Origin: a virus
Virus record (IMG/VR): IMGVR_UViG_3300050011_000099
Strand: one strand, 5' to 3'
DNA: 42,884 nt
Both the position numbers and the translations under genes were made by a program. Of this stretch, positions 714 to 42,884 are shown piece by piece. How positions within the stretch are numbered: the first letter of the stretch is position 1; each line of letters opens with the position of its first letter. The notes under the pieces were generated by a model. The model saw only the letters and a program-made list of their open reading frames with translations, did not search any database and had not been told where the DNA came from.

Positions 714-1523
714 TCAGTCGTTTCCTTCCAGACGGATCACAAGCCAGTTGGAGTATTTAGCCCCGGTTGCCTCCCAGGCTGCGGCCCTGGCTGCGGCCCC
801 GGCTGCGTCCCAGGCTGCGGCCCTGGCTGCGGCCCCGGCTGCGGCCCAGGCTGCGTCCCTGGCTGCGGCCCAGGCTGCGGCCCAGGCTGCGGCCCAGGCT
901 GCGTCCCTGGCTGCGGCCCCGGCTGCGTCCCAGGCTGCGGCCCTGGCTGCGGCCCCGGTTGCGGCCCTGGCTGCGTCCCCGGCTGCGTCCCCGGCTGCGT
1001 CCCTTTCCTGGATCGTCGCCTGTCCATTAGCGAAGAGTCGAGCGATTCGGATCGCCTCGGCGGGTCGGTTGTCATCCGGACGGACCTTCAGGAAGAGTGG
1101 CAGCACGTCTTCAGCACAGTCAGCAGAGAAGAGACGAAGATTACAATCGTTCGTGGTCCCCACTGGACGTATCAGCCGCATTGATTCGACAGAAAACTTG
1201 TCGTCACCATCTACCCGAGCCCCGCGGGTTTCAACGACCCAGAGGGTCGCGGTCTCTACCGGAAGGTGAGTGAACACGTCCTTGCCCGTCATACCGTGCC
1301 AGCCTGATTGACAGATAACCGGCTCGCACTTCGGCGTCCAGGCCTTCACCCGCACCGGCCAGCGAAGGTTACGAGTGGGAGATATCTTGTCGCCCACCAG
1401 CCACTTGTAAAGGACCTCGTCGTCGGGTTTCACACACGGCCCTTGCACGATGCATTTTTCGGCTTTCAGCACCCCTATTGCTGTAGCCCGTGAAATCAGT
1501 TCTTCGCCCTTCATGTCACTCAT
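714..1523 (-). CDS. Paralog B of the repeat protein. It has a C-x2-GWHG domain, a CAED...ARLFANG helical segment, a ([W/R/G][A/D]AA)n array and a conserved KYSNWLVIRLE tail.
   Basis: 269-aa ORF. LYKWLVGDKISP..PVICQSGWHGMTGKDVFTHLP..DDKFSVESMRL..RLFSADCAEDVLPLF..AIRIARLFANGQAT matches paralog A. The C-terminal KYSNWLVIRLEGND matches KYSNWLVVRIESEL at 42692-42740. Confidence 0.85.
   Translation of the reverse strand: MSDMKGEELISRATAIGVLKAEKCIVQGPCVKPDDEVLYKWLVGDKISPTRNLRWPVRVKAWTPKCEPVICQSGWHGMTGKDVFTHLPVETATLWVVETRGARVDGDDKFSVESMRLIRPVGTTNDCNLRLFSADCAEDVLPLFLKVRPDDNRPAEAIRIARLFANGQATIQERDAAGDAAGDAARAATGAAARAAAWDAAGAAARDAAWAAAWAAAWAAARDAAWAAAGAAARAAAWDAAGAAARAAAWEATGAKYSNWLVIRLEGND
766..1005 (-). 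repeat. Twenty degenerate 12-bp units of the form gctgcgNcccNg, coding.
   Basis: Units were listed by hand. Units 2-16 differ only at unit positions 7 (g/t) and 11 (t/c/a). Confidence 0.9.
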
Positions 1524-1659
1524 GGGCCGCTAACTTTCGCTTCAGTTCGACAATTTCAGCCTCTAGGCGCTGTATCGTCTCTTCGGCTACTTCCTTGGCA
1601 TTGCGCAATTGGCGCTTGTATTCGTAGAGTTCGCGGCTGTGTTCAAGGTCCTCAGTCAT
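1516..1659 (-). CDS. Small coiled-coil protein of 47 aa, below the ORF-track size cutoff.
   Basis: ATG at 1659-1657 and TGA at 1518-1516. It has 8-nt overlaps with both flanking genes (ATGACTGA and ATGAGTGA). Translation: MTEDLEHSRELYEYKRQLRNAKEVAEETIQRLEAEIVELKRKLAAHE. Confidence 0.55.
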   Translation of the reverse strand: MTEDLEHSRELYEYKRQLRNAKEVAEETIQRLEAEIVELKRKLAAHE

Positions 1660-1924
1660 AATACGGGCTTTCGTAAGTTTCTAATTGGTCAAACAGCTTC
1701 TGTACCTCACGACGAGCGACCAAATACTTCAAGTGAACCACTTGGACCTCGGCGTCAAAGCCCCGATTTACCTCGTCAATCGTGTCCTCGTATTCACTCG
1801 GAGAGCCACCTTCGCGCATCTTCACTGACGCCGCCCGGAGAAGTGTATTTCTCCTTCCTTGCGCACTGCCGACTTCCTCATTGACACAATCAGCCAGTTC
1901 TTCCCTGGCTCTCTCAACACTCAT
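1652..1924 (-). CDS. Hypothetical protein (90 aa).
   Basis: The ORF fills the gap in the coupled minus-strand gene train. No motif recognised. Confidence 0.65.
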   Translation of the reverse strand: MSVERAREELADCVNEEVGSAQGRRNTLLRAASVKMREGGSPSEYEDTIDEVNRGFDAEVQVVHLKYLVARREVQKLFDQLETYESPYYD

Positions 1925-1926
1925 CT

Positions 1927-2199
1927 TTAGCCTTTCTCTACTTCACGTTTCACAAAGCTGGCGTCAGTGTGGGATAACTCTGCTAGTTCGTGGAGATTCA
2001 AATCCCCCAAAAGTCTGCGCCAGATCTCTCGTCGTTCCTCGGTTAACGACGCTGAGGACGTTCTACGGCGCTCTAAAGTCCGGCGGATGACCTTTAGGCG
2101 GTTCATGTCCTCGTGGACGCTTTGGGATACGTCGATAGAGCGTAAATCCCTACGTCGTAAGGGTTTTACCGCGTCGTCAGGGTCGTTAAGCCTAGCCAC
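1927..2199 (-). CDS. Hypothetical basic protein, possibly with a C-terminal HTH. The start is uncertain and the ORF is open to 2286.
   Basis: An in-frame GTG at 2199 lies just after the upstream stop (2192-2194). The longer ATG start would overlap the upstream gene by about 95 nt. LNLHELAELSHTDASFVKREV looks like an HTH. Confidence 0.45.
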   Translation of the reverse strand: MARLNDPDDAVKPLRRRDLRSIDVSQSVHEDMNRLKVIRRTLERRRTSSASLTEERREIWRRLLGDLNLHELAELSHTDASFVKREVEKG

Positions 2200-2518
2200 G
2201 CTTGGCGCACCACACCGTCGCCTGTCGGCCTGATTTGGTAGCCCTGGTACCACCAGAGATGATCCTTCCGGCCTTTTGCAGTTCAATCCTTCGAGGACGG
2301 GCGGTGTTTCCAGCGATTCCAGTAACGATGGAGATTTCCTCGTCGGTCAGTCCGCCCATAGCAGCGCAAATGTAGGTGTAAATAATCTCGCGCAGGGCTT
2401 GGGCGTTGGGCTTCACGCTTACCGCCGCGTCGATGGAAGGCTGAGAGTGAATCTGGAATGGGAGCAGGGGTTCCGGGGCACCCCATAGTTGAGCGATGTT
2501 GAGTCCTCGTTTTTTCAC
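2192..2518 (-). CDS. Small DNA-binding protein, winged-helix-like.
   Basis: The GTG start overlaps the upstream stop (GTGA). LTDEEISIVTGIAGNTARPRRIELQKAGRIISGG has an HTH-plus-wing pattern. Confidence 0.55.
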   Translation of the reverse strand: MKKRGLNIAQLWGAPEPLLPFQIHSQPSIDAAVSVKPNAQALREIIYTYICAAMGGLTDEEISIVTGIAGNTARPRRIELQKAGRIISGGTRATKSGRQATVWCAKRG

Positions 2519-2889
2519 AGCATCTCCAGTTCTCCAGCACTAAGGGCCAGTCCTAACAGGTTGGCCGATTCTCCAAAACCCCCATGAGCGTGAATCCACT
2601 CGTGGTGCGCCAGACAGATGTCCAAGAGATTGGTGATCTGGTTCGACCCTCCCCGGCTCCGATACTTGCGATGGTGGATGTGGACCGCGTAAATACCACA
2701 TCCCACATCGAGGAAATCATCGAGGGCAATCTGAGTCTCTGGAGTGCGCAGCAAGTGATAGAGCACAAAGGTCGCTGCTTCGCAGATTCCTTTAGAACGT
2801 ATCCTGACCAGGGGTTTATACGCTTCAAACTCATTATCGTACGCAGCTTGACGAGCAGATTTACCCTGCTTCATCGGTGTTCTCTTCAT
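2515..2889 (-). CDS. HNH endonuclease.
   Basis: HIHHRKYRSRGGSNQITNLLDICLAHHEWIHAH is a classic H-N-H core. The RBS GGAAAGGAG precedes the ATG. Confidence 0.85.
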   Translation of the reverse strand: MKRTPMKQGKSARQAAYDNEFEAYKPLVRIRSKGICEAATFVLYHLLRTPETQIALDDFLDVGCGIYAVHIHHRKYRSRGGSNQITNLLDICLAHHEWIHAHGGFGESANLLGLALSAGELEML

Positions 2890-2992
2890 AGCACTCCTTT
2901 CCGTTGAACCTTAGTCTACACCTAATATCGGAAGGGATAGACCTGTCCGAAGGAGATATTTTTCTAAGAATCCTTCTTACAATTCATTACAC

Positions 2993-3057
2993 TTATCCAC
3001 AAGTTATCCACAGGGTTATACACAGCCTGTGGCGTACTTATCAACAAGAAATCAACA
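2993..3057 (+). promoter_or_regulatory. Phased cluster of DnaA-box-like 9-mers. Candidate replication origin or DnaA-responsive control region.
   Basis: The boxes are TTATCCACA (2993-3001), TTATCCACA (3004-3012), TTATACACA (3016-3024), TTATCAACA (3038-3046) and the weak AAATCAACA (3049-3057). Starts are spaced 11, 12, 22 and 11 bp apart. All lie in a 275-bp non-coding gap. Confidence 0.6.
3008..3032. other. 7-bp inverted repeat CCACAGG/CCTGTGG that brackets the third DnaA box.
   Basis: ccacagg at 3008-3014 and cctgtgg at 3026-3032, read directly. Confidence 0.6.
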
Positions 3058-3061
3058 AGAA
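3040..3061 (+). repeat. Direct repeat atcaacaagaa x2.
   Basis: 3040-3050 and 3051-3061 are identical, followed by a partial third copy (atc). Confidence 0.85.
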
Positions 3062-3164
3062 ATCCTCAGATTCAATCGCTTGACCAACAAGTTTCGTGTA
3101 GTAAAAATGGTTTCTTTCACTACCCGCGAGAGGTTCTACCGCGCTCCGCTTGCTCTCCGCGTCA

Positions 3165-3350
3165 CTACGTTCCTTGGCTCAGAACAGTTGATATATCACC
3201 GAGTGAAGCGTCCGCCAGAGTCTCGGTGAATATTGCTTTCGAATAAGTCTGGACAAGGCGTATGAGTTCGTTACGTTCCTCCTGGCCCAGAGTTCCACCG
3301 AGTTCTTCCACGAAGTCAACGATGTCGAGCATGGCTTCGGTCCCAGTCAT
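3165..3350 (-). CDS. Hypothetical acidic protein (61 aa).
   Basis: ATGA overlap with the upstream gene at 3347-3350. Confidence 0.6.
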   Translation of the reverse strand: MTGTEAMLDIVDFVEELGGTLGQEERNELIRLVQTYSKAIFTETLADASLGDISTVLSQGT

Positions 3351-3976
3351 GAGTTCATGATCTTGAAAGCAGCCTTAACACCGGAAACCAACTGCTTGTC
3401 GCTTAGTGATCCACGAGACTCAATCTGCCTCGCTAGATCGTGGATGAAGTCGTTATCGCTCAAAGTCGCGGCTTGGAGGATTTGGTCGAAGTCATCGTTT
3501 CCAGAGCCGTGAACGTACGGAGTACCGGTAGGACGATTGTCGGAGTAATCGTAAGGTTCAGGAGCATTTCCCGATTCCAGACGAGTGACCTTTCGATTGC
3601 TGACGTACTCGCCAGGCTCGCGCGATGGGGTGTTACCCGAACGGTTGGTGACTTCCTCGTGAGAAGCGATGCCGTTCTTGGTGGAAGCTCCAATAGCGAT
3701 TAAAGCCCGCCCCCACGCTGCTGTTTCGGCGTTCTGGACCTCCGAATCCTTGGTGAAGGGTGTAGGTCCAGGAATGGGCTCCCAAGCTGTTCCGATGCCA
3801 GGCCGGGGATCATCCGGGGTTCGGTAAGCCGCAGCCGTGTAGACCACCCACGACGTTCCCGCCACCACCACGAACTCCATGTTCACTTGAGTCATGGTTA
3901 AATCGGGGAACTTATCCCTCATCTCTGTCAATCGAGTCGCCACGTCGATGTAATCCATCTGTCGTTCGTAAGCCAT
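3347..3976 (-). CDS. Hypothetical protein, possibly a Rad52/Sak-like single-strand annealing protein.
   Basis: The RBS GGAAAGGAAC precedes the ATG. The helix motif NAETAAWGRALIAIGAS resembles the (E/K)xAxxxAxxRAxxxxG helix of Rad52-type annealing proteins. This assignment is from memory of that motif only. Confidence 0.45.
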   Translation of the reverse strand: MAYERQMDYIDVATRLTEMRDKFPDLTMTQVNMEFVVVAGTSWVVYTAAAYRTPDDPRPGIGTAWEPIPGPTPFTKDSEVQNAETAAWGRALIAIGASTKNGIASHEEVTNRSGNTPSREPGEYVSNRKVTRLESGNAPEPYDYSDNRPTGTPYVHGSGNDDFDQILQAATLSDNDFIHDLARQIESRGSLSDKQLVSGVKAAFKIMNS

Positions 3977-4040
3977 TGTTGTTCCTTTCCGTAGGTGTAG
4001 ACCTCAGTTTACCATAGCCGTGTAACAGAGGCTTGGAAAC

Positions 4041-4080
4041 TGCAATAGGTGACGCCTGATTGGGAACGTCACCTATTGCA
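4041..4080 (-). terminator. Perfect 14-bp inverted repeat with a 12-nt loop, downstream of the last lysis-cassette gene.
   Basis: tgcaataggtgacg (4041-4054) pairs with cgtcacctattgca (4067-4080). On the minus strand it is followed by GTTTCC, which is only a weak U-tract. Confidence 0.45.
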
Positions 4081-4114
4081 CGGAAAGGAAGAGAGTGGTC
4101 TTCCGTACTTCAGA

Positions 4115-5257
4115 CTACACCGGAGGCGGGCTCTGCGCGTTCAACTGAGTGATGAGCGCGGCAACCAGGGCTTCAAGTTGAGCGATCTGGGTGCTTTGAC
4201 TGACCTTGGTGGATGGTGCGTAGACCGGAGCGCCGATGTAGCCCAGGAAGACTCCGACCCACGGCCACTGACTCTCTGCGGCGTGAAGAAGAAGCGTTAA
4301 GACACCTCCGGCGATGCCCAGGATAGCGATGGTGGTGGTGAGGGTTACGTGGTAACCCAACCGGGCGATTAAGGCCGCCGCCCCGGACTCAATGAAGGGC
4401 ATCAAACTACGAACAATGGCCTTAAAGGTGTTGGACGCTGGTTTGGCTACGACGACGGTTGGCACGACGAGCATGGGAATACCTCCTGATTTAGGTACGG
4501 GTGGCGAAACGGGGCTCACAGGGGCCTCTGGAAGGATTCCGTGGACCTCAGCCAAGGCGGATTCTAAAGCATTCCAGTCCACGTTGGGATCGTCGGCGTC
4601 GAAGATTATCCAGGCGTCGGTGATGTTGGTTTCACGAAAGAACAGGGTGAAGGGTTGAACCCCTCCCCAGGTTATTAACGCCCCGGAACCGTCAGCGTGG
4701 GTCTGGATTAACAGCGTGTCGTGTCCGTCAGTTTGGGCCATGGAGTTCCAAGGCGTTCTTGGGGTGGTGTTAAAATCCCCTATGGCTTCTTGAGCGTCTA
4801 GGGACAGTCCGAGAATCACCCCTCTACCCGTTTGAGCGAAGGAATCCAGGCTGTCCAAAGGCACTTCGCCGTAACCTTTGATGATTCCCTGCTTGTAGAG
4901 GAACCCTAGCCAGGAAGCATTATCCACCCCTTGGTCGGGAATCAGTCCTACCGGAGAGGGTACTAAGGGAAGAAAGCCCATGGCTAGGCCGTAGGCCCCG
5001 TAGGTACCTAACGTTCCTTCGTACTTGGGCATCCCCAGTTGGCCGTAGGCAGAGTAGGACTGGAGTTTGGCCATGTTGTAATGATCCGCTGCGCTGCCAC
5101 CACAGCAGCTGAACCGATCATTAAAATCCATGCCCCACTGTTCACCTATGCCGGTAGTCCCGTCCCACTCCAGGTATCCAGGTCCCGCGGGCATGAACTT
5201 GGTGGCCAATAGTCGAGGTTCGTGACTTTCACGATGAGGCCCAACGCGCAGGCTCAC
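4115..5257 (-). CDS. Putative papain-fold cysteine peptidase with a C-terminal multi-TM anchor. Candidate membrane-tethered lysin.
   Basis: GTGA overlap with the upstream gene. Motifs are WGMDFNDRFSCCGGSAADH and GHDTLLIQ..GALITWGG, which gives a Cys...His...W order. A PVSPVSPPVP linker is followed by 3-4 hydrophobic helices. Confidence 0.45.
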   Translation of the reverse strand: MSLRVGPHRESHEPRLLATKFMPAGPGYLEWDGTTGIGEQWGMDFNDRFSCCGGSAADHYNMAKLQSYSAYGQLGMPKYEGTLGTYGAYGLAMGFLPLVPSPVGLIPDQGVDNASWLGFLYKQGIIKGYGEVPLDSLDSFAQTGRGVILGLSLDAQEAIGDFNTTPRTPWNSMAQTDGHDTLLIQTHADGSGALITWGGVQPFTLFFRETNITDAWIIFDADDPNVDWNALESALAEVHGILPEAPVSPVSPPVPKSGGIPMLVVPTVVVAKPASNTFKAIVRSLMPFIESGAAALIARLGYHVTLTTTIAILGIAGGVLTLLLHAAESQWPWVGVFLGYIGAPVYAPSTKVSQSTQIAQLEALVAALITQLNAQSPPPV

Positions 5258-12504: not shown

Positions 12505-13029
12505 ATGTACTACGGCAAATGGGACACAACAAGTCTCCAAAGTTTTATCTATTCTTCGCTCGACACGTCCGCAGGTCTTCACGAATGCTGGCCATTCATG
12601 GGGCAATGCAACGATATCGGATACGGAATTTTCAAACGACGTGGAATCCGATATCGCGCTCACCGGGTCGCATACGAACTGGCGTATGGAGCGATACCAG
12701 AAGGAAAGAGCATCTGCCACTCGTGCGACAACCCTCCGTGTTGTAACCCTGAGCATCTTTGGGCTGGGAGTCACCGCGAGAACATGGCAGACATGGGCCA
12801 GAAGGGTCGAGTCATTAATAATCCCCGGTGCGGAATCGCGAGCATCCAAGCCAAACTCACCGACGATCAGGTCCGTTCCATCCGAAGCGAGTACGTGCGC
12901 CAGAAGCCAGGGCCAAGGGGGAAGAACGCGGTTGGCCTCAGCCGATATGAACTCGCTGCCAAGTACGGTGTCTCTCGGTCGCTGATTGACCATGTTCTGG
13001 ACCGCACAGCGTGGAAGCACGTTGACTAA
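12505..13029 (+). CDS. HNH_3-type homing endonuclease with a C-terminal HTH, on the opposite strand inside the structural operon.
   Basis: Motifs are CWPFMG..GYG..AHRVAYELAYGAIPEGKSICHSCDNPPCCNPEHLWAGSHRENMADM, with the tail LSRYELAAKYGVSRSLIDHVL. Confidence 0.85.
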   Translation: MYYGKWDTTSLQSFIYSSLDTSAGLHECWPFMGQCNDIGYGIFKRRGIRYRAHRVAYELAYGAIPEGKSICHSCDNPPCCNPEHLWAGSHRENMADMGQKGRVINNPRCGIASIQAKLTDDQVRSIRSEYVRQKPGPRGKNAVGLSRYELAAKYGVSRSLIDHVLDRTAWKHVD

Positions 13030-24933: not shown

Positions 24934-26573
24934 GGTGCTCCAGCCCCAACAGTGGTGGGTGCGGTCGTTCCCGCTTGATCGGCTACCGGTCCGGTGAAGG
25001 CATCAGACGCATTCTGGTTGTACATGCTCGTAGTGCCAGAGAGCATCTTGTTAAGGACCTCGCCCCAACTAGCTGACTGCGCGGCGTAGTAACCAGTGGG
25101 GTCAGACTGCTTGGCGGCTAGGTCCGCCTCCGCCGTGGCGTCGGGTGCCGTTGTTTTCACCGTAACGGCATCGTTGTTCACCTGATTCTGCAACGCGGTG
25201 ATCTGATTATTCACTTCGCTGGCAACTGAATCACCAAAAGTCGTGAGGTTGGCGCCTTTAGAAGTCCCCAGCGGAGTGCCGGACGCAATGGCAGAAATGG
25301 CCTTGCTCCAACTTCCACCGTTCGCGTCGTAGGCGTTGGAGAGCAGAGAAGTAAAAGCGCCAAGTTGAACAGACGAGGGGGCGAGTCCCGGTGAGGTGAA
25401 CTTCTTGGCCGCCGGGTAGAGTTTCTGCGCCTCGGTCCAGTCCGCCTGGTTAAGTGCATACGCACCGCCGTAGGTGGTAGAAGTCGGTTGAGCGAAGTGG
25501 GTGGGGGCGATTTGCTGATTGCCGCTCTTTACCTTCTCGTTCACGGTTCGGCTGAACTTCGAAGTAACCACCGGCTGGCGCGACGTTACCGGCGCTCCCA
25601 AGCCACCAATATTGGGAAGCCCTTGGGAAAACTCTGACTGAGCATTCTGCATCGACGTGGTGTTGGTCGCACCCTGAGGAGTAGGAAAGCCGGGAGGAAG
25701 TTTGGCGGTGGTCGTCTGGTTGACCGGTATCGACGCCGTTCCGTTCGCCGCAAACACCGGGCTCGTTCCCTCCAGGTTCGTTTGCGCGGGACCTTGCGTA
25801 GTTCCCGCTCCCGGTAGTTTGGTCCCTGTCACAGCCGCCTGGTAAGCAGAGATGACTGAATCAATCCCGTCAGGACCTAGTTTGTTTAAGGCCGAGACTT
25901 CCGAGTGCGCTTGGGCAATCTCAGCCTGCGCCGCGGCCCTTGGACCTTCGGCGTAAGACGCGTCCTGTCCCTGAACCTGGCTGATGAAGGACTGAATCTG
26001 GGCCTGGTCGGGGGAGTAACCGAGAGCGTTCTCAAACGCTGAAGTTAAGGTTGCCGAGAGAGTAGTCGGATTCTCCTGATTTACAATGGTAGGCGCAGTG
26101 GCTGATTCTGTTGCCTTGGTGAGATCGGCGGAGATTTGGCTCCCGATGGCCGCGGTCGGGGTAGCGTTCTGAGTGAGGAACGAAATGACATCGGTTCCCT
26201 GCGATGCCGCGTCACCCTCCAATGACTTGAATGCAGAGACATTGGTGGAATTTGATATCCCGGTAGCAGCCGTCGTAGACAGAGCGCCTATCGCCACCAT
26301 CTGGTCTTGAATGCTTTGACGTTCTTGCTGCGTCATGGCGACGTACGAGGCCAAGTCCGCGGCCTGCTGGTTCAACTGTCCATTGGTGAGGAAGAACTGC
26401 TGCTCGGCTGAAGTTATGCCGTAGGCCGGATCAGAGAAGAACTCCGCAGGAGTGGTGGACTTTTGGAACGCTGCTAGTTGCGCCGACGTGGTGCCATCAG
26501 AACCACCGGCGAAAGAACCCGAGGTCCCGGCTGTTGAATTTCCGGTCGGGTTGTAGGCCGCGATGGCACCCAT
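24930..26573 (-). CDS. Low-complexity virion protein (547 aa). Putative internal or ejection protein.
   Basis: TAATG coupling to the 1496-aa gene. The composition is Q/N/T/S/A/G-rich. Confidence 0.55.
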   Translation of the reverse strand: MGAIAAYNPTGNSTAGTSGSFAGGSDGTTSAQLAAFQKSTTPAEFFSDPAYGITSAEQQFFLTNGQLNQQAADLASYVAMTQQERQSIQDQMVAIGALSTTAATGISNSTNVSAFKSLEGDAASQGTDVISFLTQNATPTAAIGSQISADLTKATESATAPTIVNQENPTTLSATLTSAFENALGYSPDQAQIQSFISQVQGQDASYAEGPRAAAQAEIAQAHSEVSALNKLGPDGIDSVISAYQAAVTGTKLPGAGTTQGPAQTNLEGTSPVFAANGTASIPVNQTTTAKLPPGFPTPQGATNTTSMQNAQSEFSQGLPNIGGLGAPVTSRQPVVTSKFSRTVNEKVKSGNQQIAPTHFAQPTSTTYGGAYALNQADWTEAQKLYPAAKKFTSPGLAPSSVQLGAFTSLLSNAYDANGGSWSKAISAIASGTPLGTSKGANLTTFGDSVASEVNNQITALQNQVNNDAVTVKTTAPDATAEADLAAKQSDPTGYYAAQSASWGEVLNKMLSGTTSMYNQNASDAFTGPVADQAGTTAPTTVGAGAP

Positions 26574-29500
26574 TATGGAGTCTTCCAGTTCTTAGCAGTG
26601 AAGGTTCCCGGCGTAGCGTTCGCAATGTTCACCTGTGGAGCAGTAGCCGTAGGTATCGACATGAAGAGTCCGGTAATAACGTTAATCATCTCCGGGTCCG
26701 AGGTAGCAGTAGACACCAAGTAATTGTCCCACGAGTCCTTGGCTTCGGTTTGCATAGTGCTGGAACTTCCATCAGTAGTAAGGGTGGTTATCTGGTTCTG
26801 GTAGGCGGCGTAACCCTGCAATAAGGTCCGGGTGTTGTTGGCAATGTCCGACGTAATGCCGGGATTCTCGTTGAGTAGTTTGGTCATCTGGATTATCGCC
26901 TGACCTCTTTCGGTCTCCCTTGAGTCAGAGTTGAACCAGTTGCCCCAGACGGGATTCTGCTGGGCGTACTTTCCTATCGTCCCACTACCTAAAGTACCGT
27001 TGCCCCAAAACGCCTGGTCAGCGTTGTATTTATCCGTTCCGGAAAGACTCTTGATCTGCGCTTCGTACTGCGCCAGCCACTTGTAGAAAATCGAATTACC
27101 GGCCGCGATGTACAAAGCATCGATGTACGAAGGCACCGAGCCGTTCTGCGTCCACTGCTCAGGGTCCAACTTGGACCTTAAGTTCTGGGCGATCTGCTCG
27201 TTGTAGACGGCCGCGTTGTACTTGGTCGATAACCCAGTGGTCGGCATCAGGAGAATCCCGGCATTGGGATAGCGGGTTATGAGGTCGTAGTTCTGGTTAA
27301 TCCAATTCTCCGCCGCCGTTGAAGAGGGCACGCTCATCCCTGTTTGCTCCGAACTCTGCCAGACCGTGAACGGCGTAGCGTCGGGATGCTTGGAAAGGAA
27401 CTCCTGCAAGCCCGCGCTCACAGACTTCTTCGCAGTGATATCAGCGGACAGTTCTTGAGAGAACTGGTTATAGACCTGGTTGGTCAACTCAGGCGAGACT
27501 GGAGTAACCGCACCAACTAATGCTTTCATGGTGTAGAGAATCCTGGTCTGCATTCTCACCCGGTCCATGAACGCTTGCATCACTCGGTAGTTACTCCCCG
27601 CGGGTGGAATCTTGCCTTCGTAGTCGAGCGTCGCCAAGGTCTGCATCATCGTGGAGTCAAAACTTCGTGTATTGAATCCTGGCATCCACGCTGTGAGCAG
27701 GCGCTGTGCAACGGTGTTAGGGATCATCTGCTCGTAGATGGGTTCGGTAGAAGTCGGGCCAAGAATGGTAGAGGCATCTGCCGACAGGTCAGCCTTCAAT
27801 ACTGGAGACAAGGTTTCGGGAAACGCTTGGGCGATGGCAGAAACGGCAATGGAAACCAGTGGGCCAATATCTGGACGCACTCCTGCCGAGAGAGGGAAGA
27901 TGACGCTAGAACTTGAGAGGTTCCAACCCATCCCAACGGGAGTAGATGAGTCAGCATCGACCCCCATCATCGAAAGACCAGCGACTGCACCGGAAGTTAA
28001 GAATCCAGTCCCCGGCATCACTAGGTAGCCTTGCCCATTCTTGCCAGAGAACACTTGGCCCACGTCGTGCATGTTGGAAATCATCAACTGGTACTTGCGA
28101 AAGGCTGCGGGGTCTTCGGCTAGCAACCTCCCCATCCTGCGATACGCCTGCTCTTGAGCGAAGTAGAACGGTGCCCAGTTCCTGAACGTCTCAGTCCACT
28201 GGGTTCTATCGGTCAGGTTGTGGACGTTCTTGATGACGTTCTGAGTCGAGGTAATCATGGCTTGAGCGTGCGCCTCTTCGTCAGTGCGTATGCCATCTTC
28301 TACTGACTGTTCCAGTATGCCTCGCTGCGCCCTGTACTCCGCGAAGGCAATTGGTTCACGAGAGAGGAAGTTGACCATTGGATTGAGGACCCTGCGAAAT
28401 CCCGAGTTCGCGATTCTCTGTAATCTCGGATCACCGTTGGGCAGTGGCAATCTACCCGACACCATTGCGGGTCGGTCCTCACCAGAAATGTTGCGCAGTT
28501 CGTTGTCGTCAACGGTCTCGCCGTTTCTGATGTGGTCTAAGAGTTCCGTGCGTACAGTGCCGTTCTTTCCCGTCACGAGTCCTCGTACATTGTCCGTGAC
28601 GGCTCGCGCCCATTCGTCGTACTGGTCCATGTCCGGAGGGCGAGGTGTCTCCTTGGGAAACGATGTGATGGTCTCCTTGGAACGAAGCATCTTGCCGCGT
28701 TCCTTTAACGGCATGTTGCGCTGGAAGTCGGCAACGTCAGGGTACGCCGCGTGCGTCGCTTCATCAAGGCTGAGGCCGCTGTCTAATCCATCGCGCAGTT
28801 TGCCCGCGGCCAACTGCGAAGCATCGTCGTTACCGACTTCATGCAACCTTGCCTGCCATGCATCGTTGAACTGCGCGTGACCATCTTGGAAGATGCCGAA
28901 GTCGTCGCCCGTCTTGGGCTTCTTGGGAGAGTTGAAAAAACTGCTGCGCAACGCATTAGTGGATTTCTCGTCTCGCGGAGTCAGGTCATCAGCGAATGAC
29001 TCCGAACCATGCCCCGCAGCCACGTTCAGAGGAACGCCAGTGGGGTCAGTTCCTTCTATGAAATCAACGGCGTAGTTGAGGTCCTTCTCCGTCGTGTTAT
29101 CTATTACGCCCGGAGTCACCGCTCTCGCCCCACGAATGAGTTTCCACGCTAACGCCGCTACCACCGAGGCATCGCCCTCACTGACCTTCACGCCGATCTT
29201 GGCGGCGGACAGTTCCATGCGCGAGCGAACCATGTTCACTATCCCCAGACGAAGGGTGTTGGGTATCAACTCCGCGAGTGCAATGTGTAGCGCATACGAA
29301 GGCGACATCAGGACCCAGCGTTTGAAAATCGGCGCGGTCAGATGGTCGAAGGCAAAGTCATCGAGCCCGCCAATCTTTGCCATTATCTTCTGATCGCCCA
29401 AGATGCGTGAGACGCGACGGGCCTGCAACATATCAAGACCGGAAATTGGACCCGTCTGATTCTTGGTTATCCCGGCGCTCATCGTCGTTCCGGTCTCGGT

Positions 29501-31063
29501 GTCGCGAACCTTGGAGATGTCAGCCATTGGATCGCCGCCCATCCCGTACACCGCGTCCTTGCCGAACATCCCCGTGTCAATGAAGCGAGTAATAGCATCG
29601 CCCCACATCTGTTGCACCTTGGGGTCCTCAGATTTTGACGCGAGGAAATCCTCCATTGAGATGCCGCGCATCTTGGCCGTGTTCGCCAATGTGGACCACA
29701 CGAGCTTGCGCCAAATCTTTATCTTTCCCGGAAGGTCGGCGTTCGCGTACTCCGTCATGATGGCCGCAGCGACGGTTCGGTTCTCTGTGAATAACGCGGT
29801 ACGTCCAACGAACAACGTCCCGTCATCTTCACCAACGGGGTTGAACTCTTTGTTGGTCCACACTTTCGTCGCGTCGTCAATTGATTCAGGTAAGCGAGAA
29901 GTCGCGTGATACAGCCGTTGCATTCCCGGCAATGTTGAATCGCCCATCGCTTCATGCGCCAACTGAAATGGCAGACGAGTGACTGACAACGTAGGTAACT
30001 TGTCGAAGTACACCATCTCGTGTGTGCGCACGATGTCACGGAATATCTTGGTTACGTCTTCTTCCGTATTCGCATCACCTAACGCTTTTAGCAATTCACT
30101 CTGTTGGGCCAACGGTTTGTACGCCGAAGTGAGAGCAATCTCACCCGCGTTCTTCGACGCGATATCCGCGAAGGCCCTACGGACGTTCCCACCACTGAAC
30201 GAACCAAGGAGGTGGTCGAATGCCTCGGTCGTCTGTGGCGATTTTCCGGGGAACATATCACCCAGGGTTCCGCCTAATCCTGCTGCTGAATTTGCCTTAC
30301 CCGCGAGCCCAAGTAACTCCGTTCCGCCCACGTTCATGTCGAAGATTCCGTCAATGAGGCCTGAAGTTATTTTAAACGCTGGACCGTTACGTTCAAAGCC
30401 GGGGACGCCGAGGCTGTCAAGTTCCGAGGTTAAGTCTCTACCTATGGACACCTGTTGGTGGGTATTGGGGTCGGCGTAGGAAGCCTTGGCGGTGCGATCC
30501 CAGGAGTCCTTGTAAAAGAGTTGGCTCTCTATTCCAGTTGCCGCCTCGGCTCCCAAGTCAGCGCCGTAGAAACTACCGGTGGTCATGGCCCCCGCCACTG
30601 CTCCACCGGCTATGCCCAAACCTTCCAATAGCGCCGCGGTCATGCCGTGGGTGGCTTCCACATCATGCAGATACCGATACTCGTGTTGAACAATTTGCAT
30701 GGGTTTGTTCATGGTCGAAAGAACTTTGCTTCCTACGTCGATAGCGCCTTGCACTACGTCGTGTCCCACCGCGCCAACGTCAGCAACGACGTGATTTCCG
30801 AACCAGTCCAGAGCGTGCTGCAAGGTGTCGCTTCCCCCAACGGCAGTGGAAACGGCGGCGTGAGCGTTGGTATCCGAAAGGATGTTCGTCCCTCTGGCAA
30901 CCGCTTGAGAGTTGCCCTGCACGTCACCACCGGCGCTGGCAATCCCTACGCTAAGACCCGGCGATTTGCTTAATTCCGGCGCTGTGTTAAGAACGGTGTT
31001 AAGAGAAGTAGCGAATGCGCTCGGATCACTAGGAGGTGGCGCTTGACTAGAAGTGTCGGTCAC
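26573..31063 (-). CDS. Giant virion protein (1496 aa) of unknown function. Putative internal or ejection protein.
   Basis: A long uninterrupted ORF with a GTG start. I could not recognise any enzymatic motif by eye. Confidence 0.6.
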   Translation of the reverse strand: MTDTSSQAPPPSDPSAFATSLNTVLNTAPELSKSPGLSVGIASAGGDVQGNSQAVARGTNILSDTNAHAAVSTAVGGSDTLQHALDWFGNHVVADVGAVGHDVVQGAIDVGSKVLSTMNKPMQIVQHEYRYLHDVEATHGMTAALLEGLGIAGGAVAGAMTTGSFYGADLGAEAATGIESQLFYKDSWDRTAKASYADPNTHQQVSIGRDLTSELDSLGVPGFERNGPAFKITSGLIDGIFDMNVGGTELLGLAGKANSAAGLGGTLGDMFPGKSPQTTEAFDHLLGSFSGGNVRRAFADIASKNAGEIALTSAYKPLAQQSELLKALGDANTEEDVTKIFRDIVRTHEMVYFDKLPTLSVTRLPFQLAHEAMGDSTLPGMQRLYHATSRLPESIDDATKVWTNKEFNPVGEDDGTLFVGRTALFTENRTVAAAIMTEYANADLPGKIKIWRKLVWSTLANTAKMRGISMEDFLASKSEDPKVQQMWGDAITRFIDTGMFGKDAVYGMGGDPMADISKVRDTETGTTMSAGITKNQTGPISGLDMLQARRVSRILGDQKIMAKIGGLDDFAFDHLTAPIFKRWVLMSPSYALHIALAELIPNTLRLGIVNMVRSRMELSAAKIGVKVSEGDASVVAALAWKLIRGARAVTPGVIDNTTEKDLNYAVDFIEGTDPTGVPLNVAAGHGSESFADDLTPRDEKSTNALRSSFFNSPKKPKTGDDFGIFQDGHAQFNDAWQARLHEVGNDDASQLAAGKLRDGLDSGLSLDEATHAAYPDVADFQRNMPLKERGKMLRSKETITSFPKETPRPPDMDQYDEWARAVTDNVRGLVTGKNGTVRTELLDHIRNGETVDDNELRNISGEDRPAMVSGRLPLPNGDPRLQRIANSGFRRVLNPMVNFLSREPIAFAEYRAQRGILEQSVEDGIRTDEEAHAQAMITSTQNVIKNVHNLTDRTQWTETFRNWAPFYFAQEQAYRRMGRLLAEDPAAFRKYQLMISNMHDVGQVFSGKNGQGYLVMPGTGFLTSGAVAGLSMMGVDADSSTPVGMGWNLSSSSVIFPLSAGVRPDIGPLVSIAVSAIAQAFPETLSPVLKADLSADASTILGPTSTEPIYEQMIPNTVAQRLLTAWMPGFNTRSFDSTMMQTLATLDYEGKIPPAGSNYRVMQAFMDRVRMQTRILYTMKALVGAVTPVSPELTNQVYNQFSQELSADITAKKSVSAGLQEFLSKHPDATPFTVWQSSEQTGMSVPSSTAAENWINQNYDLITRYPNAGILLMPTTGLSTKYNAAVYNEQIAQNLRSKLDPEQWTQNGSVPSYIDALYIAAGNSIFYKWLAQYEAQIKSLSGTDKYNADQAFWGNGTLGSGTIGKYAQQNPVWGNWFNSDSRETERGQAIIQMTKLLNENPGITSDIANNTRTLLQGYAAYQNQITTLTTDGSSSTMQTEAKDSWDNYLVSTATSDPEMINVITGLFMSIPTATAPQVNIANATPGTFTAKNWKTP

Positions 31064-33994: not shown

Positions 33995-35869
33995 CTAAAC
34001 TCTCTGCGGGGATTTTCCGAGCCATGATGGACGACGACTGGTTGAGGGTGATTTGGACACCGGCACCACCAAGTACTGCATCTGGAACATCGCGAACCAG
34101 GTGGACATGGTTAGGTCCGTAGTCGAGGATTCCGGGTAGCGAGTCACTTCATCGACAAGTCGCATAGATATTGCCCTGCCGATTCCTTTACCCGGTAAAC
34201 GAACCCGTCCGAACTTGAAGTTCGGCGCAATCATCTGGACCCCATACTCCTCGTCAGTCTTGTTCCTATGGGTGTCGTGGGGGATAATCATCACACTGTT
34301 TTTGCTCTGCCACCTTTGGGTGAAGTCGTAGGCGTAGAGGTACTTCTGCGCCCCGTTGCGTTCAATAATCCAGTGGCTTATCGGTATCCCCAAGTCCCGA
34401 GAGGTCTGTTGCCACTCATCCATCAAACCTGAGAACGTCCCGTTGTTCTGGTTCCAATCTAAGAAATCAGGCGCGTCCATGCCCTTTTTTTCGAGGTCGA
34501 TTAAAAACCATTGGTCCGAAGGTTCGTTATAGAGCCACCAGGTGATCCCCCAGTACCTACTAGGGCTTGGGTCCACCGAGACGATGGAATAGGACGGACT
34601 AGCAAGATTCCGAGGGAACTCCAACCTCCCGCGGTCCTTGTCCCAACACCCCAAGTAATTGCCGTAGCCGTTAATCCAGGCGGGGTCCACTAAGACTGAG
34701 GAAGCCGCCACGTCCTCTTGCTGATAGACCTGCGCGTACTTGTCGGGGCGGTTCTTCAGCATGGAAGAAATCTCGCGCCAGGCGCACCTTCTTGGGCTTA
34801 AGAGGCATCCCTCGGGATAGGGCGGCGTGTTCTGCTTGTGCTTTCCCTGACACAGTTCCTCGTAGTGGGCTCTGTAGACGATGTGGTGGTACTTCCTCGG
34901 CAACCCGTCTTCGCTTACCCGTAACTCAATCTCTTCTTCCTCGTCGTCATCGTCATCCTGGGTCACTTCCATGTCGAGGCAGTATCTATATAAGTCGTTG
35001 GCCCCCATCCGCTGGCCCTGGAGGATGAGTAAACCGCCGGGTTCCAAACGTCGTTCGGCGTAGGAGTCCCACCAGTCCCGGTCCTTCTCGATCATCTCGA
35101 TGGTCCGTAATCTGTTAGACGTAACGAGGTCGTCCCAGATGCAGAAGTCGTACCTTCCCCCAATGAACTCCTGATCCCTACCTACCGCTGTCCACGTTGG
35201 TTCCTTCGAGGTAATAGAGGCCCCGTCAAACTGCTGGACGATGAAGGCGTCCTTGGTCCAGGACTCGTGATCTACCGGTTTGAACCTGCCAAAGTCCTCG
35301 GAAAGAGTAGCGACGGCATCCACGGCGACTCCTTTGAGTTTGTCCTCGTCGTCGGCCAGGATGGGTAGTGTCGCTTCAAGTGCCCTCCTTACAAGTGCTG
35401 TGTACTGCCCGGCCAACTTCGCAGTCGCGCTACCTACTAAGCCTCTAATCGCCCTATCCTTGACAGTCAACCACAGGGGTAGGGCGTAGGTGAAGTGCGA
35501 GGACTTCCCAGCCCCCGGAGGGGCATTCACAACCACGTACTCCTTCTCCTGGGTGACCAGCAGGCTCTCAATCTCGTGAGCCGATTGCTCCTGCCACGGC
35601 AGTCCAATCCGTCCTAGATACCGCAACTGGAAGTAGTTGAAGTCCGTCAACGCCCTTTTGGCCTCCGGGCACAGTTCCCTCGCCCTGATTGGATCAGGCT
35701 GGTTTCGAGCCAGCCGGGCGGAAGTCGTATATTGCCCTCTGTCGGGATGGCGGTTATCGTGATTCTTCGCACTACCTATGGATATCGAGGCAAGCCGGGC
35801 GGCCTTGGTCTGGTTTAACCCCTTGGCCCTGGCTTCCTCATAGATCGTCCACTGCTGCTGGGAAATCAC
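33995..35869 (-). CDS. terL: Terminase large subunit with an N-terminal HTH extension.
   Basis: Walker A is VVNAPPGAGKS and Walker B-like is FCIWDDLV. The nuclease-domain segment is IVSVDPSPS. The N-terminal LNQTKAARLASISIGSAKNH is an HTH. An acidic insert reads DDDDDEEEEIE. The start is GTG with no clear SD. Confidence 0.9.
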   Translation of the reverse strand: MISQQQWTIYEEARAKGLNQTKAARLASISIGSAKNHDNRHPDRGQYTTSARLARNQPDPIRARELCPEAKRALTDFNYFQLRYLGRIGLPWQEQSAHEIESLLVTQEKEYVVVNAPPGAGKSSHFTYALPLWLTVKDRAIRGLVGSATAKLAGQYTALVRRALEATLPILADDEDKLKGVAVDAVATLSEDFGRFKPVDHESWTKDAFIVQQFDGASITSKEPTWTAVGRDQEFIGGRYDFCIWDDLVTSNRLRTIEMIEKDRDWWDSYAERRLEPGGLLILQGQRMGANDLYRYCLDMEVTQDDDDDEEEEIELRVSEDGLPRKYHHIVYRAHYEELCQGKHKQNTPPYPEGCLLSPRRCAWREISSMLKNRPDKYAQVYQQEDVAASSVLVDPAWINGYGNYLGCWDKDRGRLEFPRNLASPSYSIVSVDPSPSRYWGITWWLYNEPSDQWFLIDLEKKGMDAPDFLDWNQNNGTFSGLMDEWQQTSRDLGIPISHWIIERNGAQKYLYAYDFTQRWQSKNSVMIIPHDTHRNKTDEEYGVQMIAPNFKFGRVRLPGKGIGRAISMRLVDEVTRYPESSTTDLTMSTWFAMFQMQYLVVPVSKSPSTSRRPSWLGKSPQRV

Positions 35870-35872
35870 AGG

Positions 35873-36229
35873 TTGATACTACAGCGGTACAGCGTCAGGA
35901 TTATGAACACGTGTTACTATGTACAAATGGGCACACGCGAGATGATCGTCGATTGGGAACTTAAAAGGATGATGCGCAAGGTCCAAGTCACAGATTCGTG
36001 CTGGGTGTGGATGGGAGCAACCAGTCACCACGGGTACGCAATGACGACGGTCGCTGGTAAGCAGCGGGTGGCGCACAGAGCCTTCTATGAGTTGATTGTG
36101 GGCGAGATACCGGAGGGTCTGGTACTTGACCACCTTTGTCACGGATGGGACCAGGAATGTCGCAAGGGGAGCCTGTGCCCTCATAGACGATGTGTGAACC
36201 CAGATCACCTAGAGCCATTAACCTCATAA
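35873..36229 (+). CDS. HNH_3-type homing endonuclease on the opposite strand, abutting the TerL start. Its own start is uncertain (35873, 35903 or 35927).
   Basis: CWVWMGATSHHGYAMT..AHRAFYELIVGEIPEGLVLDHLCHG..CVNPDHLEP. It is a paralog of 12505..13029. Confidence 0.8.
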   Translation: MILQRYSVRIMNTCYYVQMGTREMIVDWELKRMMRKVQVTDSCWVWMGATSHHGYAMTTVAGKQRVAHRAFYELIVGEIPEGLVLDHLCHGWDQECRKGSLCPHRRCVNPDHLEPLTS

Positions 36230-36296: not shown

Positions 36297-36367
36297 TGGT
36301 GGAACTAACGGGAATTGAACCCGTCGGAAGCCCGTCCAAATGGTCCCCCGGCGAACCTGCTAGTCCC
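36297..36367 (-). other. tRNA-like 3' fragment with a T-arm, acceptor strand and encoded CCA. It is not a foldable canonical tRNA.
   Basis: The minus strand reads ACGGG-TTCAATT-CCCGT-TAGTTCC-A-CCA (36324-36297). A possible 5' acceptor strand GGGACTA lies at 36367-36361. The 36 nt between them cannot form D and anticodon arms. Confidence 0.35.
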
Positions 36368-36424
36368 GGAAGGGGGAAGTGATCTGACACCCGTACGATG
36401 GGCGACCAGATCACTTCCCCTTCC
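36368..36424. other. Long hairpin with an 18-19 bp stem (one bulged G) and a 20-nt loop. Possible terminator or RNA element.
   Basis: ggaagggggaagtgatctg (36368-36386) pairs with cagatcacttccccttcc (36407-36424). On the plus strand it is followed by TTCTTTC. Confidence 0.5.
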
Positions 36425-36520: not shown

Positions 36521-36899
36521 ACCCGGTTAACGATTATTCACATACAGACGATCTGAAACAACTGTACTCATTGACTTATTAATCATTGTTGCATTGAATA
36601 TGTAGTTGATAACAGTAGTTCAGTTGTTAATAAGCAATGTCATCAGGTGATATGTGTATATAGTAAACGCCGATATCGACCGTTATGTCAACTACAACGT
36701 TGTAACTCGTATTCAGAATGATCCATGAGCTTTCAAGTGGAATTGAGCATTTAATCACTGGAATGCAAGAAATGTATGCTCATCCCTTACCTAAGACATT
36801 CATTAGTGATTAATTGCTCAGAAGTGACGTATTAATGCGATCACTGAATAATCAGAAGAATTTCGCTCGCTTTTTGGTAGAAGTTCTAGCACAGAATGA
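36521..36899. other. AT-rich non-coding island.
   Basis: My hand count is 129 G+C in 360 nt (36541-36900), about 36%. One coding line I counted for comparison (20401-20460) was 60% GC. No ORF of 60 aa or more lies here. Confidence 0.7.
36534..36542 (+). promoter_or_regulatory. Isolated DnaA-box match TTATTCACA (TTATNCACA) at the edge of the AT-rich island.
   Basis: Read directly. A single 9-mer could occur by chance. Confidence 0.3.
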
Positions 36900-37319
36900 C
36901 TAGGAATGTTCACTCCGTTTACGTTGCTTCGGATTGTTGACACCGTTGGATATCAAACAAGTGTCAGTGAGTCGTAAACACTTGCATTCACGACGCTCTT
37001 CGAGTGAATCGCTCCAGTGCATAATCCGCCGATCAAGCCCTACACGGTTCAAAGGTGGTTGGCAAAAGAACACCAATCCAGCTTCGCGATTCTTAGCCTC
37101 ACGCCTGGTGTTAAATGCCTCAAGCGTAAAGAAAGATAATCCCATAGAACGCTTAGACCGCCAGTGATCGTTAAGCCGCGAGACAACGTGCTCGGATTGT
37201 CCAACGTACATGATTTTGCCATCAGTATCGTAGAGCCGATAGACGTAAAAGTGTTCATTATCAACGAAATCTCGTAGTTGGTACATCACGTCAGGGAATT
37301 TGCAGATGATTTCTTCCAT
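36900..37319 (-). CDS. GIY-YIG nuclease (139 aa), a free-standing homing-endonuclease-like gene.
   Basis: FYVYRLYDTDGKIMYVGQS..SRLNDH..REAKNREAGLV..PPLNR supplies the GIY, YIG, R, E and N motifs in order. Confidence 0.8.
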   Translation of the reverse strand: MEEIICKFPDVMYQLRDFVDNEHFYVYRLYDTDGKIMYVGQSEHVVSRLNDHWRSKRSMGLSFFTLEAFNTRREAKNREAGLVFFCQPPLNRVGLDRRIMHWSDSLEERRECKCLRLTDTCLISNGVNNPKQRKRSEHS

Positions 37320-40472: not shown

Positions 40473-40799
40473 CTAGTACCCTGCACAACCGTGCAAATCA
40501 GGCCAACCGTATCTTTTAGCGAATTGCCACAAGGCCCAGGATTGTTCTACCGGAGTGGCTAAATCCATTCTTGACGGCATGGAAGGCGCTTTGAACTCTT
40601 GCCAGGTGGAATTAAGCCATCCCAAGCCACCAAAGTAGCGAGGGCCATGCACATGCCATCCGGCGGCGGATTCTTCACAGACGTGCACCTTCATGGTCAT
40701 CTGCATGATCTTGGGCGTCACCAAAGGACTAGCAGCGCAGTTGGTGGCGAGAACTAACGAAGCGGTAAAAATCAGGACTGAAACGGTTCGGCGTATCAA
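40473..40799 (-). CDS. Secreted transglycosylase-like (Rpf-like) protein (108 aa).
   Basis: TTG start with the signal peptide MIRRTVSVLIFTASLVLATNCAAS. VCEESAAGW..YFGGLGWLNSTW..EQ..GW..C follows the CES-G-W...YGGLQF...TW...EQ...GW...C pattern of Rpf domains. Confidence 0.6.
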   Translation of the reverse strand: MIRRTVSVLIFTASLVLATNCAASPLVTPKIMQMTMKVHVCEESAAGWHVHGPRYFGGLGWLNSTWQEFKAPSMPSRMDLATPVEQSWALWQFAKRYGWPDLHGCAGY

Positions 40800-42695: not shown

Positions 42696-42884
42696 AGTTC
42701 GCTCTCGATTCGCACGACGAGCCAGTTTGAGTATTTGTTCCAGACGGCACTCCTGGCGGCACTCTCGGCGGCACTCTCGGCGGCACTCTCGGCGGCACTC
42801 TCGGCGGCACTCTCGGCGGCACTCTCGGCGGCACTCTCGGCGGCACTCTCGGCGGCACTCTCGGCGGCACTCTCGGCGGCACTC
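42692..42884 (-). CDS. 3' part of the wrap-around repeat gene (paralog A).
   Basis: The frame through the 12-mers reads (SAAE)n SAARSAVWNKYSNWLVVRIESEL, then TGA at 42694-42692. That stop overlaps the next ATG (ATGA). The ORF track lists only the wrong-frame PPRV ORF here. Confidence 0.8.
   Translation of the reverse strand, partial: SAAESAAESAAESAAESAAESAAESAAESAAESAAESAAESAARSAVWNKYSNWLVVRIESEL
42743..42884 (-). repeat. 12-bp tandem repeat: one variant unit gacggcactcct, then ggcggcactctc x10.8.
   Basis: Read directly. Bases 42755-42884 are identical to 1-130. Confidence 0.95.

Follow-up and report, generated by a model that had tools for sequence, protein, structure and literature searches.

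An array of DnaA-type boxes in 11-bp register upstream of an HNH-winged-helix operon in a circularly closed phage contig

The virus record IMGVR_UViG_3300050011_000099 (IMG/VR) is a phage contig of 42,884 nucleotides, and this whole stretch is called the window below. We analyzed an array of five to six DnaA-type boxes, all in one orientation, that lies in a 275-bp non-coding gap (2890-3164) with a 61-aa open reading frame (ORF) on one side and the gene of an HNH endonuclease on the other, both on the minus strand. Judging from its sequence context, we tentatively propose, at somewhat less than an even chance, that the array is a lineage-specific, DnaA-responsive upstream control module of the operon that holds the HNH gene and the gene of a winged-helix protein (wHTH), with titration of DnaA as a by-product. 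A DnaA-controlled switch for the HNH and early genes had been a secondary idea in an initial annotation of this DNA; it provides the best fit to the anatomy of the locus, in which the boxes keep a 22-nt spacing to a palindrome within a frame of -10 hexamer and ribosome-binding site (RBS).

Closed into a circle by a 12-mer tandem repeat, the phage contig has identical first and last 130 bp and a unique length of 42,754 bp. The window has a G+C content of 56%, carries almost all of its genes on the minus strand, and has TerL (33995-35869), portal and major capsid protein as its sole structural assignments. The array region is identical across five independent assemblies, and an assembly artefact was therefore ruled out as its source. 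The host is probably an actinobacterium (Actinomycetota), because the cellular homologues of the phage's recombinase domain are nearly all from Microbacterium, Gordonia, Brevibacterium, Arthrobacter, Mycobacterium, Nocardiopsis and Acidimicrobiia. A prophage search with the capsid protein, aimed at the host, gave no match.

The array and its probable binder

Boxes 1 to 5 start 11, 12, 22 and 11 bp apart and box 6 begins another 11 bp on, with the strong boxes first and the weak boxes later along an 11-bp register (Table 1). The skipped register slot (3027) is filled by an inverted TGTGG remnant. The arms of a 7-bp inverted repeat, CCACAGG (3008-3014) and CCTGTGG (3026-3032), enclose an 11-nt loop, GTTATACACAG, that contains box 3. 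Because a CCACAG(c)CTGTGG junction recurs in the relatives L001, L212 and L258, slot 4, the right arm of this repeat, looks like a degenerate inverted box. A 22-nt unit, ACTTATCCACAAGTTATCCACA, is repeated 45 bp downstream with 82% identity. On recheck, the boxes, coordinates, spacing and single orientation given in the initial annotation were all exact, and both the extent of the non-coding gap and the placement of the third box in the loop of an inverted repeat held.

The initial annotation had suggested that clustered 9-mers be compared with their statistical expectation. The window contains 6 copies of TTATNCACA compared with 0.69 +/- 0.83 expected, and 0 of 100 dinucleotide shuffles reached 6. 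Three exact TTATNCACA matches and one site with 1 mismatch to TTATCCACA lie within 54 bp (2993-3046); by an analytic estimate, the chance of three same-strand TTATNCACA copies within 35 bp is about 3e-8. The shuffles and the analytic estimate together ruled out a chance origin of the cluster. As to isolated boxes, the copy of TTATTCACA at 36534-36542, which had been pointed out next to an AT-rich island, is present, yet two further copies stand alone at 16927 and 29786 and the island is without a cluster.

We compared the array with what DnaA is known to need away from the origin. In Escherichia coli, chromatin immunoprecipitation sequencing (ChIP-seq) and mutagenesis showed that a "double DnaA box", two boxes in the same orientation 2-3 bp apart, is required at nearly all DnaA sites (PMC11317965). 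For DnaA to bind stably away from the origin of Bacillus subtilis, about four or more densely packed intergenic boxes are needed, and neighbouring genes are regulated up or down (PMC2533591). Same-strand neighbours in the array are separated by 2 bp (boxes 1-2, 4-5 and 5-6) or 3 bp (boxes 2-3), and four boxes with at most 1 mismatch lie in the intergenic DNA at 2993-3046; these register and cluster measures come from E. coli and B. subtilis, and the host here is probably actinobacterial. Since this geometry is what DnaA needs in the two species, host DnaA is the likeliest binder, and we infer that DnaA quite probably binds the array. The actinobacterial DnaA-box consensus is TTGTCCACA, and this 9-mer occurs in the array of relative L001.

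The boxes could instead be iterons or operators of a phage-encoded protein with DnaA-like specificity, host DnaA being uninvolved. Phased direct repeats before an operon with a small HTH gene are typical of operator or iteron arrays, most early proteins of the phage are without an assigned function, and in relative L082 the same slot holds a different phased repeat (spacing 11, 22, 11, 11), as if it tracked a phage protein. However, none of the three candidates covaried with the boxes. The wHTH protein is about 80% identical between the window and L082, yet the arrays are entirely different; it is about 35% identical between the window and L001, yet the box type is the same. The N-domain of the recombinase is present in L005/L006, which are without boxes, and the 61-aa ORF is absent from L001. 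The wHTH protein and the recombinase N-domain were ruled out as box binders, and the 61-aa ORF fails by the same reasoning. Pfam found the C-terminal domain of DnaA in none of the proteins scanned, and the same 9-mer in its 2-3-bp register recurs in unrelated viruses, as described next. For these reasons a phage-encoded binder is improbable.

The tandem pair TTATCCACAnnTTATCCACA was found in at least 120 viral contigs of 32-65% G+C (IMG/VR loci L195-L314). Among the matches listed, the largest arrays have 11-13 boxes with a period of 11 bp. Of the 97 non-redundant arrays among them, 3 fall within an ORF of at least 100 aa, nearly all being non-coding, and no DnaA-like gene motif was found at these loci. 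Example arrays are those of L238 (483-675), L201 (3860-3998), L244 (1467-1703) and L272 (1524-1674); one array sub-family adjoins a 128-aa AT-hook protein and a GP88-family protein. Because the same boxes and register appear in at least 120 unrelated contigs, and in L212 and L258, a universal host factor is the economical explanation.

Table 1. Coordinates of the box array, its promoter frame and the adjacent genes in the window
Feature	Coordinates	Strand	Remarks
Box 1, TTATCCACA	2993..3001	+	perfect consensus; promoter-proximal; about -87 to -95 from predicted transcription start
Box 2, TTATCCACA	3004..3012	+	
Box 3, TTATACACA	3016..3024	+	fits TTATNCACA consensus; in inverted-repeat loop
Slot 4 of 11-bp register	3026..3034	-	no forward box; holds CCTGTGG (inverted-repeat right arm)
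Box 4, TTATCAACA	3038..3046	+	1 mismatch to consensus
Box 5, AAATCAACA	3049..3057	+	3 mismatches
Box 6, AAATCCTCA	3060..3068	+	very weak; final register slot
Invariant element ATTCTTAGAAAAAT	2958..2971	-	contains palindrome TTCTTAGAA; single copy in genome; identical in five lineages
Second palindrome-type half-site TTGTAAGAA	2974..2982	-	12 nt upstream of invariant element
Least stable 40-bp duplex of genome	2956..2995	.	z = 4.1, rank 1 of 42,714
Putative -10 hexamer TAGACT	2913..2918	-	TAGCCT in L001, L003, L092
RBS GGAAAGGAG of HNH gene	2894..2902	-	
HNH endonuclease, 124 aa	2515..2889	-	first operon gene downstream of array
Winged-helix protein (wHTH), 108 aa	2192..2518	-	phrog_1123; resembles generic MarR/ArsR/ROK-type regulators
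61-aa ORF	3165..3350	-	ends at upstream edge of gap; in L082 lineage, absent from L001
Single-strand annealing recombinase, 209 aa	3347..3976	-	

Promoter frame and variation among relatives

Along the minus strand, the recombinase gene and the 61-aa ORF are followed by a spacer of about 95 nt and the six box slots, which read TGTGGATAA on this strand. Then come 22 nt, the element ATTCTTAGAAAAAT, 39 nt, the hexamer TAGACT, 10 nt, GGAAAGGAG and the ATG of the HNH gene. The 40-bp duplex of lowest stability in the genome extends across the invariant element and the 22-nt spacer up to box 1. No change was seen in ATTCTTAGAAAAAT or in the block TGTAG.CT.AGGT...GGAAAGGA across five lineages. As ATTCTTAGAAAAAT is unique in the genome, it was ruled out as a general phage promoter motif.

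Three distances in this frame follow rules. In the window, L001 and L003 alike, 22 nt separate the boxes from the palindrome, and only 3-6 of these 22 bases are common to the window and L001/L003. The gap between the palindrome and the -10 hexamer is 38/39 or 49 nt across lineages, the difference being one helical turn, and the distance from the -10 to the RBS is 10 nt in all lineages. These fixed distances point to protein complexes that must face each other. Relative L338, which is without boxes, has a clear TTGACT-15-TATACT promoter whose -10 falls exactly at the position of TAGACT/TAGCCT, as well as an ATTCT-n5-AGAAT palindrome about 47 nt upstream of TATACT. Because these positions correspond, we infer that TAGACT is the -10 hexamer and that the invariant palindrome is an upstream operator or promoter element. 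The wHTH protein, which does not covary with the DnaA-type boxes, is a candidate binder of this palindrome. A terminator scan of the coding strand of the region gave nothing useful, and RNA folding upstream of the array was no better than in shuffles (z = 0.57). The sole sigma-70-like match in the region, TTGACC-17-AAAAAT (3080-3108, +), is found just past the weak boxes; it faces away from the array and runs antisense to the 61-aa ORF and the recombinase gene.

The number of boxes varies among relatives: 5, 2, 1 or 0 boxes were observed, or no intergenic region at all. L001/L146 have TTGTCCACA, AAATGCACA, TTTTCCACA twice and TTATCCACA; L004/L092 have TTATCCACA and TTCCCCACA; and L003 has the single box TTATACACA. 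L082 and L338 have none, and in the more distant L005/L006 the recombinase, HNH and wHTH genes abut without a gap and without boxes. Among 14 boxes from four lineages, no variation occurs at positions 8-9 and hardly any at positions 6-7, while position 3 is the most diverse (A, G, T and C all occur) and position 5 also varies, roughly in line with DnaA's known tolerance. In strain L315 (97.9% identical) the whole 1000-4250 block is almost invariant, and strain-level constraint is therefore uninformative.

In L082 (5830-5910) the place of the array is taken by five [AG]TAAGA[AG] repeats at spacings of 11, 22, 11 and 11 bp, which are similar to the half-site of the invariant TTCTTAGAA palindrome. 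Together with the wHTH gene downstream, these repeats look like the layout of an iteron or operator system. The same replacement was seen in L333, L334 and L336. The exchange in L082 implies that the slot accepts interchangeable phased arrays. More distantly, L212 and L258 have TGTGGATAAccTGTGGATAA and CCACAGCCTGTGGATAA upstream of another operon; they are recognizable as relatives by TerL and portal only (44-48% identity) and have no early protein in common with the window in the DNA compared. No box cluster was found within 10 kb of TerL in 11 closer TerL relatives, and a scan of metagenomes with an anchor pattern yielded one extra contig only, its array identical to that of L001. On this comparative pattern, the array is a lineage-specific, optional module.

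In the control module that we tentatively favor, ATP-DnaA would nucleate on the three strong boxes (2993-3024) and would spread over the three weaker boxes (3038-3068) via the 9+2/3-bp register, forming an oligomer on one face of the DNA. The complex would be held 22 nt from the invariant palindrome, which probably serves a phage regulator such as wHTH as operator. The putative -10 TAGACT follows 38/39 or 49 nt downstream of the palindrome, at a constant helical phase. Transcription of the operon, comprising HNH, wHTH and the small genes downstream, would then be raised or lowered with host DnaA status. As a side effect, DnaA would be soaked up as the phage genome multiplies. If host DnaA binds, the phage would read or disturb the host's replication-initiation status through a compact, portable DNA cassette; having very few regulatory genes of its own, the virus could in this simple way tie an early operon to the physiology of its host. 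The locus is also tractable, as natural variants with 0, 1, 2, 5 and 6 boxes exist on an otherwise conserved promoter frame.

Several observations weigh against this proposal. A sigma-70 scan found no promoter on the coding strand of the region, and the promoter assignment consequently rests on conservation and one homologous promoter. The boxes lie at about -87 to -162 from the predicted start (about 7 nt downstream of TAGACT), which is distant for a simple activator or repressor. The arrays of the window, L001 and L003 are homologous and thus do not count as independent evidence. In the 97 unrelated viral arrays (among the matches listed), orientation relative to the facing gene is unbiased (16 vs 18), so that such arrays are not, as a rule, coupled to promoters. 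Finally, the GC-skew minimum (3431) and the least stable 40-mer both adjoin the array and would also suit an origin.

The indifference of other viral arrays to gene orientation would suit a DnaA sink or tether, that is, a datA-like shut-off of host initiation or an anchoring of incoming DNA to membrane-bound DnaA. Three high-affinity boxes multiplied by the phage copy number would bind much of the cellular DnaA, and titration clusters of E. coli (datA) and Streptomyces are among the work cited in PMC11317965 and PMC2533591. Moreover, T5-like phages keep eight conserved boxes, including the TTATCAACA variant, in a non-coding, non-origin region, the injection-stop (iss) region, with a proposed function (bioRxiv 10.1101/866236). 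However, the 22-nt spacing to the invariant element is kept despite sequence divergence, which argues for local coupling rather than a free-standing sink, and the single box of L003 would be useless for titration; as for the tether, the T5 injection-stop model is itself a proposal. A sink or tether as the primary role is therefore highly doubtful.

The origin question and neighbouring features

The initial annotation had noted that the phage lacks recognizable replication genes and had proposed an oriC-like origin. In this scenario, array-bound DnaA would melt adjacent AT-rich DNA and load the host helicase, maybe with the aid of transcription. The first observation was borne out: no initiator, helicase, primase or polymerase was recognized by Pfam, PHROGs, NCBIfam, PDB sequences or motif scans of the window proteins, and a Walker-A motif was found in TerL only. 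It would suit an origin, but the L005/L326 phage, the early region of which is entirely free of boxes, likewise has no recognizable replication gene. Because a box-free relative also lacks such genes, the step from missing replication genes to DnaA as initiator breaks down; going by the genomes compared, the lack is a trait of the clade, not tied to having boxes.

Several features of the array do resemble an origin. Tandem DnaA boxes of the oriC type are present, the gradient from strong to weak boxes resembles a DnaA oligomerization region, and box 1 borders on the least stable 40-mer in the genome. The basal unwinding system, however, has at least 3 DnaA-trios (3'-NAN-5') within 16 bp, on the 3' side of TTATCCACA (PMC8287927). 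The only trio run here, GTA-CTT-ATC, begins 9 nt after box 3, has the minimum of three trios, in itself a weak criterion, and overlaps box 4; no run follows boxes 1, 2, 4, 5 or 6. The most melt-prone DNA (2956-2995) is on the 5' side of TTATCCACA, the wrong side for a box-then-trio polarity, and the 3' flank of the array, at 3070, has a stability rank of 1035 of 42,714. No AT-rich unwinding element beyond trios was found at the array.

On a larger scale, the array lies in the early region beside recombination genes, about 400 bp from the global minimum of the cumulative GC skew, a calculation that the initial annotation had suggested. While the position of the minimum suits an origin, the amplitude of the skew is small (mean about 0.03), and the arms are unequal (36.8 vs 5.9 kb), the short one being driven by few genes. 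The slot of L082, with five phased direct repeats and an inverted repeat before the wHTH gene, is also like an iteron origin; the neighbouring wHTH product, however, is not initiator-like, since it weakly matches regulators and resembles a generic repressor. Nor is the array conserved in related replicons, as it is down to one box in L003, absent from L082 and L338, missing together with the intergenic region from L005/L006, and without a counterpart near TerL in the 11 closer relatives. The equivalent clusters of T5 are not at the T5 origin. With no convincing trio run, melt-prone DNA on the wrong side, a dispensable array and a box-free relative, the oriC-like origin of the initial annotation is poorly supported, and we regard a DnaA-dependent replication origin as unlikely. 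Rather improbable, too, is a more specific version in which the phage, perhaps the whole clade, is without an initiator and replication starts by host DnaA on the array melting the adjacent unstable 40 bp. The array would then be an oriC-mimicking origin with a non-canonical polarity from box to DNA unwinding element (DUE), and the sisters would use another initiator-site cassette in the slot.

The AT-rich island (36.2-37.6 kb) was rejected as a better DnaA origin: its excess of weak boxes is mild (10 vs 4.1 +/- 1.9) and they form no cluster. The isolated TTATTCACA (36534) is followed, some 30 bp to its 3' side, by the genome's least stable 60-100-bp stretch (36567-36666). This arrangement has the canonical box-to-DUE polarity, with one good box only. 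Within 36300-36420 the island also contains a tRNA T-arm-like GGGAATTGAACCCGT and a perfect 14-bp inverted repeat (36373-36386 / 36407-36420); ARAGORN and Rfam found no RNA gene at 36300-36420.

Proteins of the wHTH family stand alone and are about 100 aa long. The AlphaFold (AF2) model of the phage protein has a predicted local distance difference test (pLDDT) score of 77 (core about 90) and weakly matches ROK, MarR, ArsR and PadR regulators (best E = 1.8e-3). Its top 50 matches include no Rep, lambda O or DnaD protein, and by this model the protein looks like a generic repressor, not an initiator. The recombinase is of the ERF/Rad52 kind, in agreement with the Rad52/Sak-like protein suspected by the initial annotation. 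Its N-domain is phrog_23738, widespread in actinobacterial prophages, and in L082 (4783-5547) a Pfam ERF domain (E = 5e-24) replaces this domain on a retained C-terminal tail. A Mu-Gam gene lies directly upstream of the recombinase in relatives (E = 8e-16). The 10-mer AGGTGTAGAC upstream of the HNH gene (2915-2924) recurs inverted upstream of the recombinase gene (3995-4004), and the two genes have the RBS context ACGGAAAGGA in common.

Homing-type nucleases are numerous in the window: an HNH_3 protein (35873-36229, +), a GIY-YIG protein (36900-37319, -), an HNH_3-like ORF antisense in the structural block (12505-13029, +) and the HNH gene after the array (2515-2889, -). In L092 a GIY-YIG gene (477-785) is inserted directly beside the boxes. 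A hairpin with a 13-bp stem follows the lysin gene (4040-4078). Between the portal and capsid genes, a 1496-aa ORF (26573-31063, -) had no Pfam, PHROGs, NCBIfam or PDB-sequence match. Tandem repeats of 12-mers and 36-mers (1-153, 773-1003 and 42745-42884) belong to Imm5-like repeat-protein genes of the AAWDAAG type, one at 714-1523 (-) and one across the contig junction; relatives have two such genes. The number of tandem repeats is uncertain because the contig closed through one of them.

Other functions for the region were considered and rejected. Neither an integrase-sized candidate nor a tRNA was found for attP or integrase arm sites, TerL is 31 kb distant and nothing supports a cos or pac site, and the window has no ParA/ParB genes to go with a partition site. 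Elsewhere in the window, Pfam did not confirm a 108-aa protein (40473-40799) as Rpf-like.

Comparison with known systems

The nearest likeness is to chromosomal DnaA clusters. Like the upstream regions of sda, ywlC, yydA and dnaA in B. subtilis and the DnaA regulon of E. coli, the array is intergenic and has at least 4 near-consensus boxes. It shares with such clusters the same-orientation pairs 2-3 bp apart upstream of an operon (PMC2533591, PMC11317965) and a box number that differs between related genomes. In contrast to them, it is on a phage genome, its boxes are farther from the putative promoter (about -87 to -162), and it keeps a fixed spacing to a phage-specific invariant palindrome, with binding and regulation here predicted. 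With the basal unwinding system of oriC the array shares tandem consensus boxes in an 11-bp register, a strong-to-weak gradient, and an AT-rich, melt-prone patch and GC-skew turning point nearby, but it differs in having no convincing run of trios, in the position of its melt-prone DNA on the wrong side of the boxes, and in its lack of conservation among relatives. In P1 oriR, DnaA boxes are combined with RepA iterons, and in the pSC101 origin with Rep iterons. Unlike at these plasmid and phage Rep-iteron origins, no Rep gene is adjacent here.

According to references given in PMC3985674, DnaA footprints on lambda DNA and stimulates the pR transcription that activates ori-lambda. In lambda, host DnaA is thus made to act as a transcription factor on a promoter region of the phage, as is predicted here. 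Lambda, however, has two isolated weak boxes near pO and itself encodes an initiator (O) and a helicase loader (P), whereas the window has a dense consensus array and no recognizable initiator.

The iss region of T5 is also a non-coding phage region in which consensus boxes stand together with TTATCAACA-type variants (TTATCAACA being listed among the T5 DnaA* boxes), in pairs with short gaps and associated with inverted repeats. The two differ in layout: the eight T5 boxes form two inverted-repeat modules inside the terminal repeat of a linear genome, in a proteobacterial phage with its own replication genes, while the window has one unidirectional 5-6-box array beside a putative promoter, with a single 7-bp inverted repeat, in an unrelated phage. 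No paired inverted-repeat modules in a terminal repeat were found in the window, the contig of which closes as a circle. Outside T5, lambda and P1, tandem arrays in viral contigs seem barely studied. Phage-borne DnaA-box clusters are thus already known; what is unusual here is a clean natural allelic series and its tight coupling to the promoter frame.

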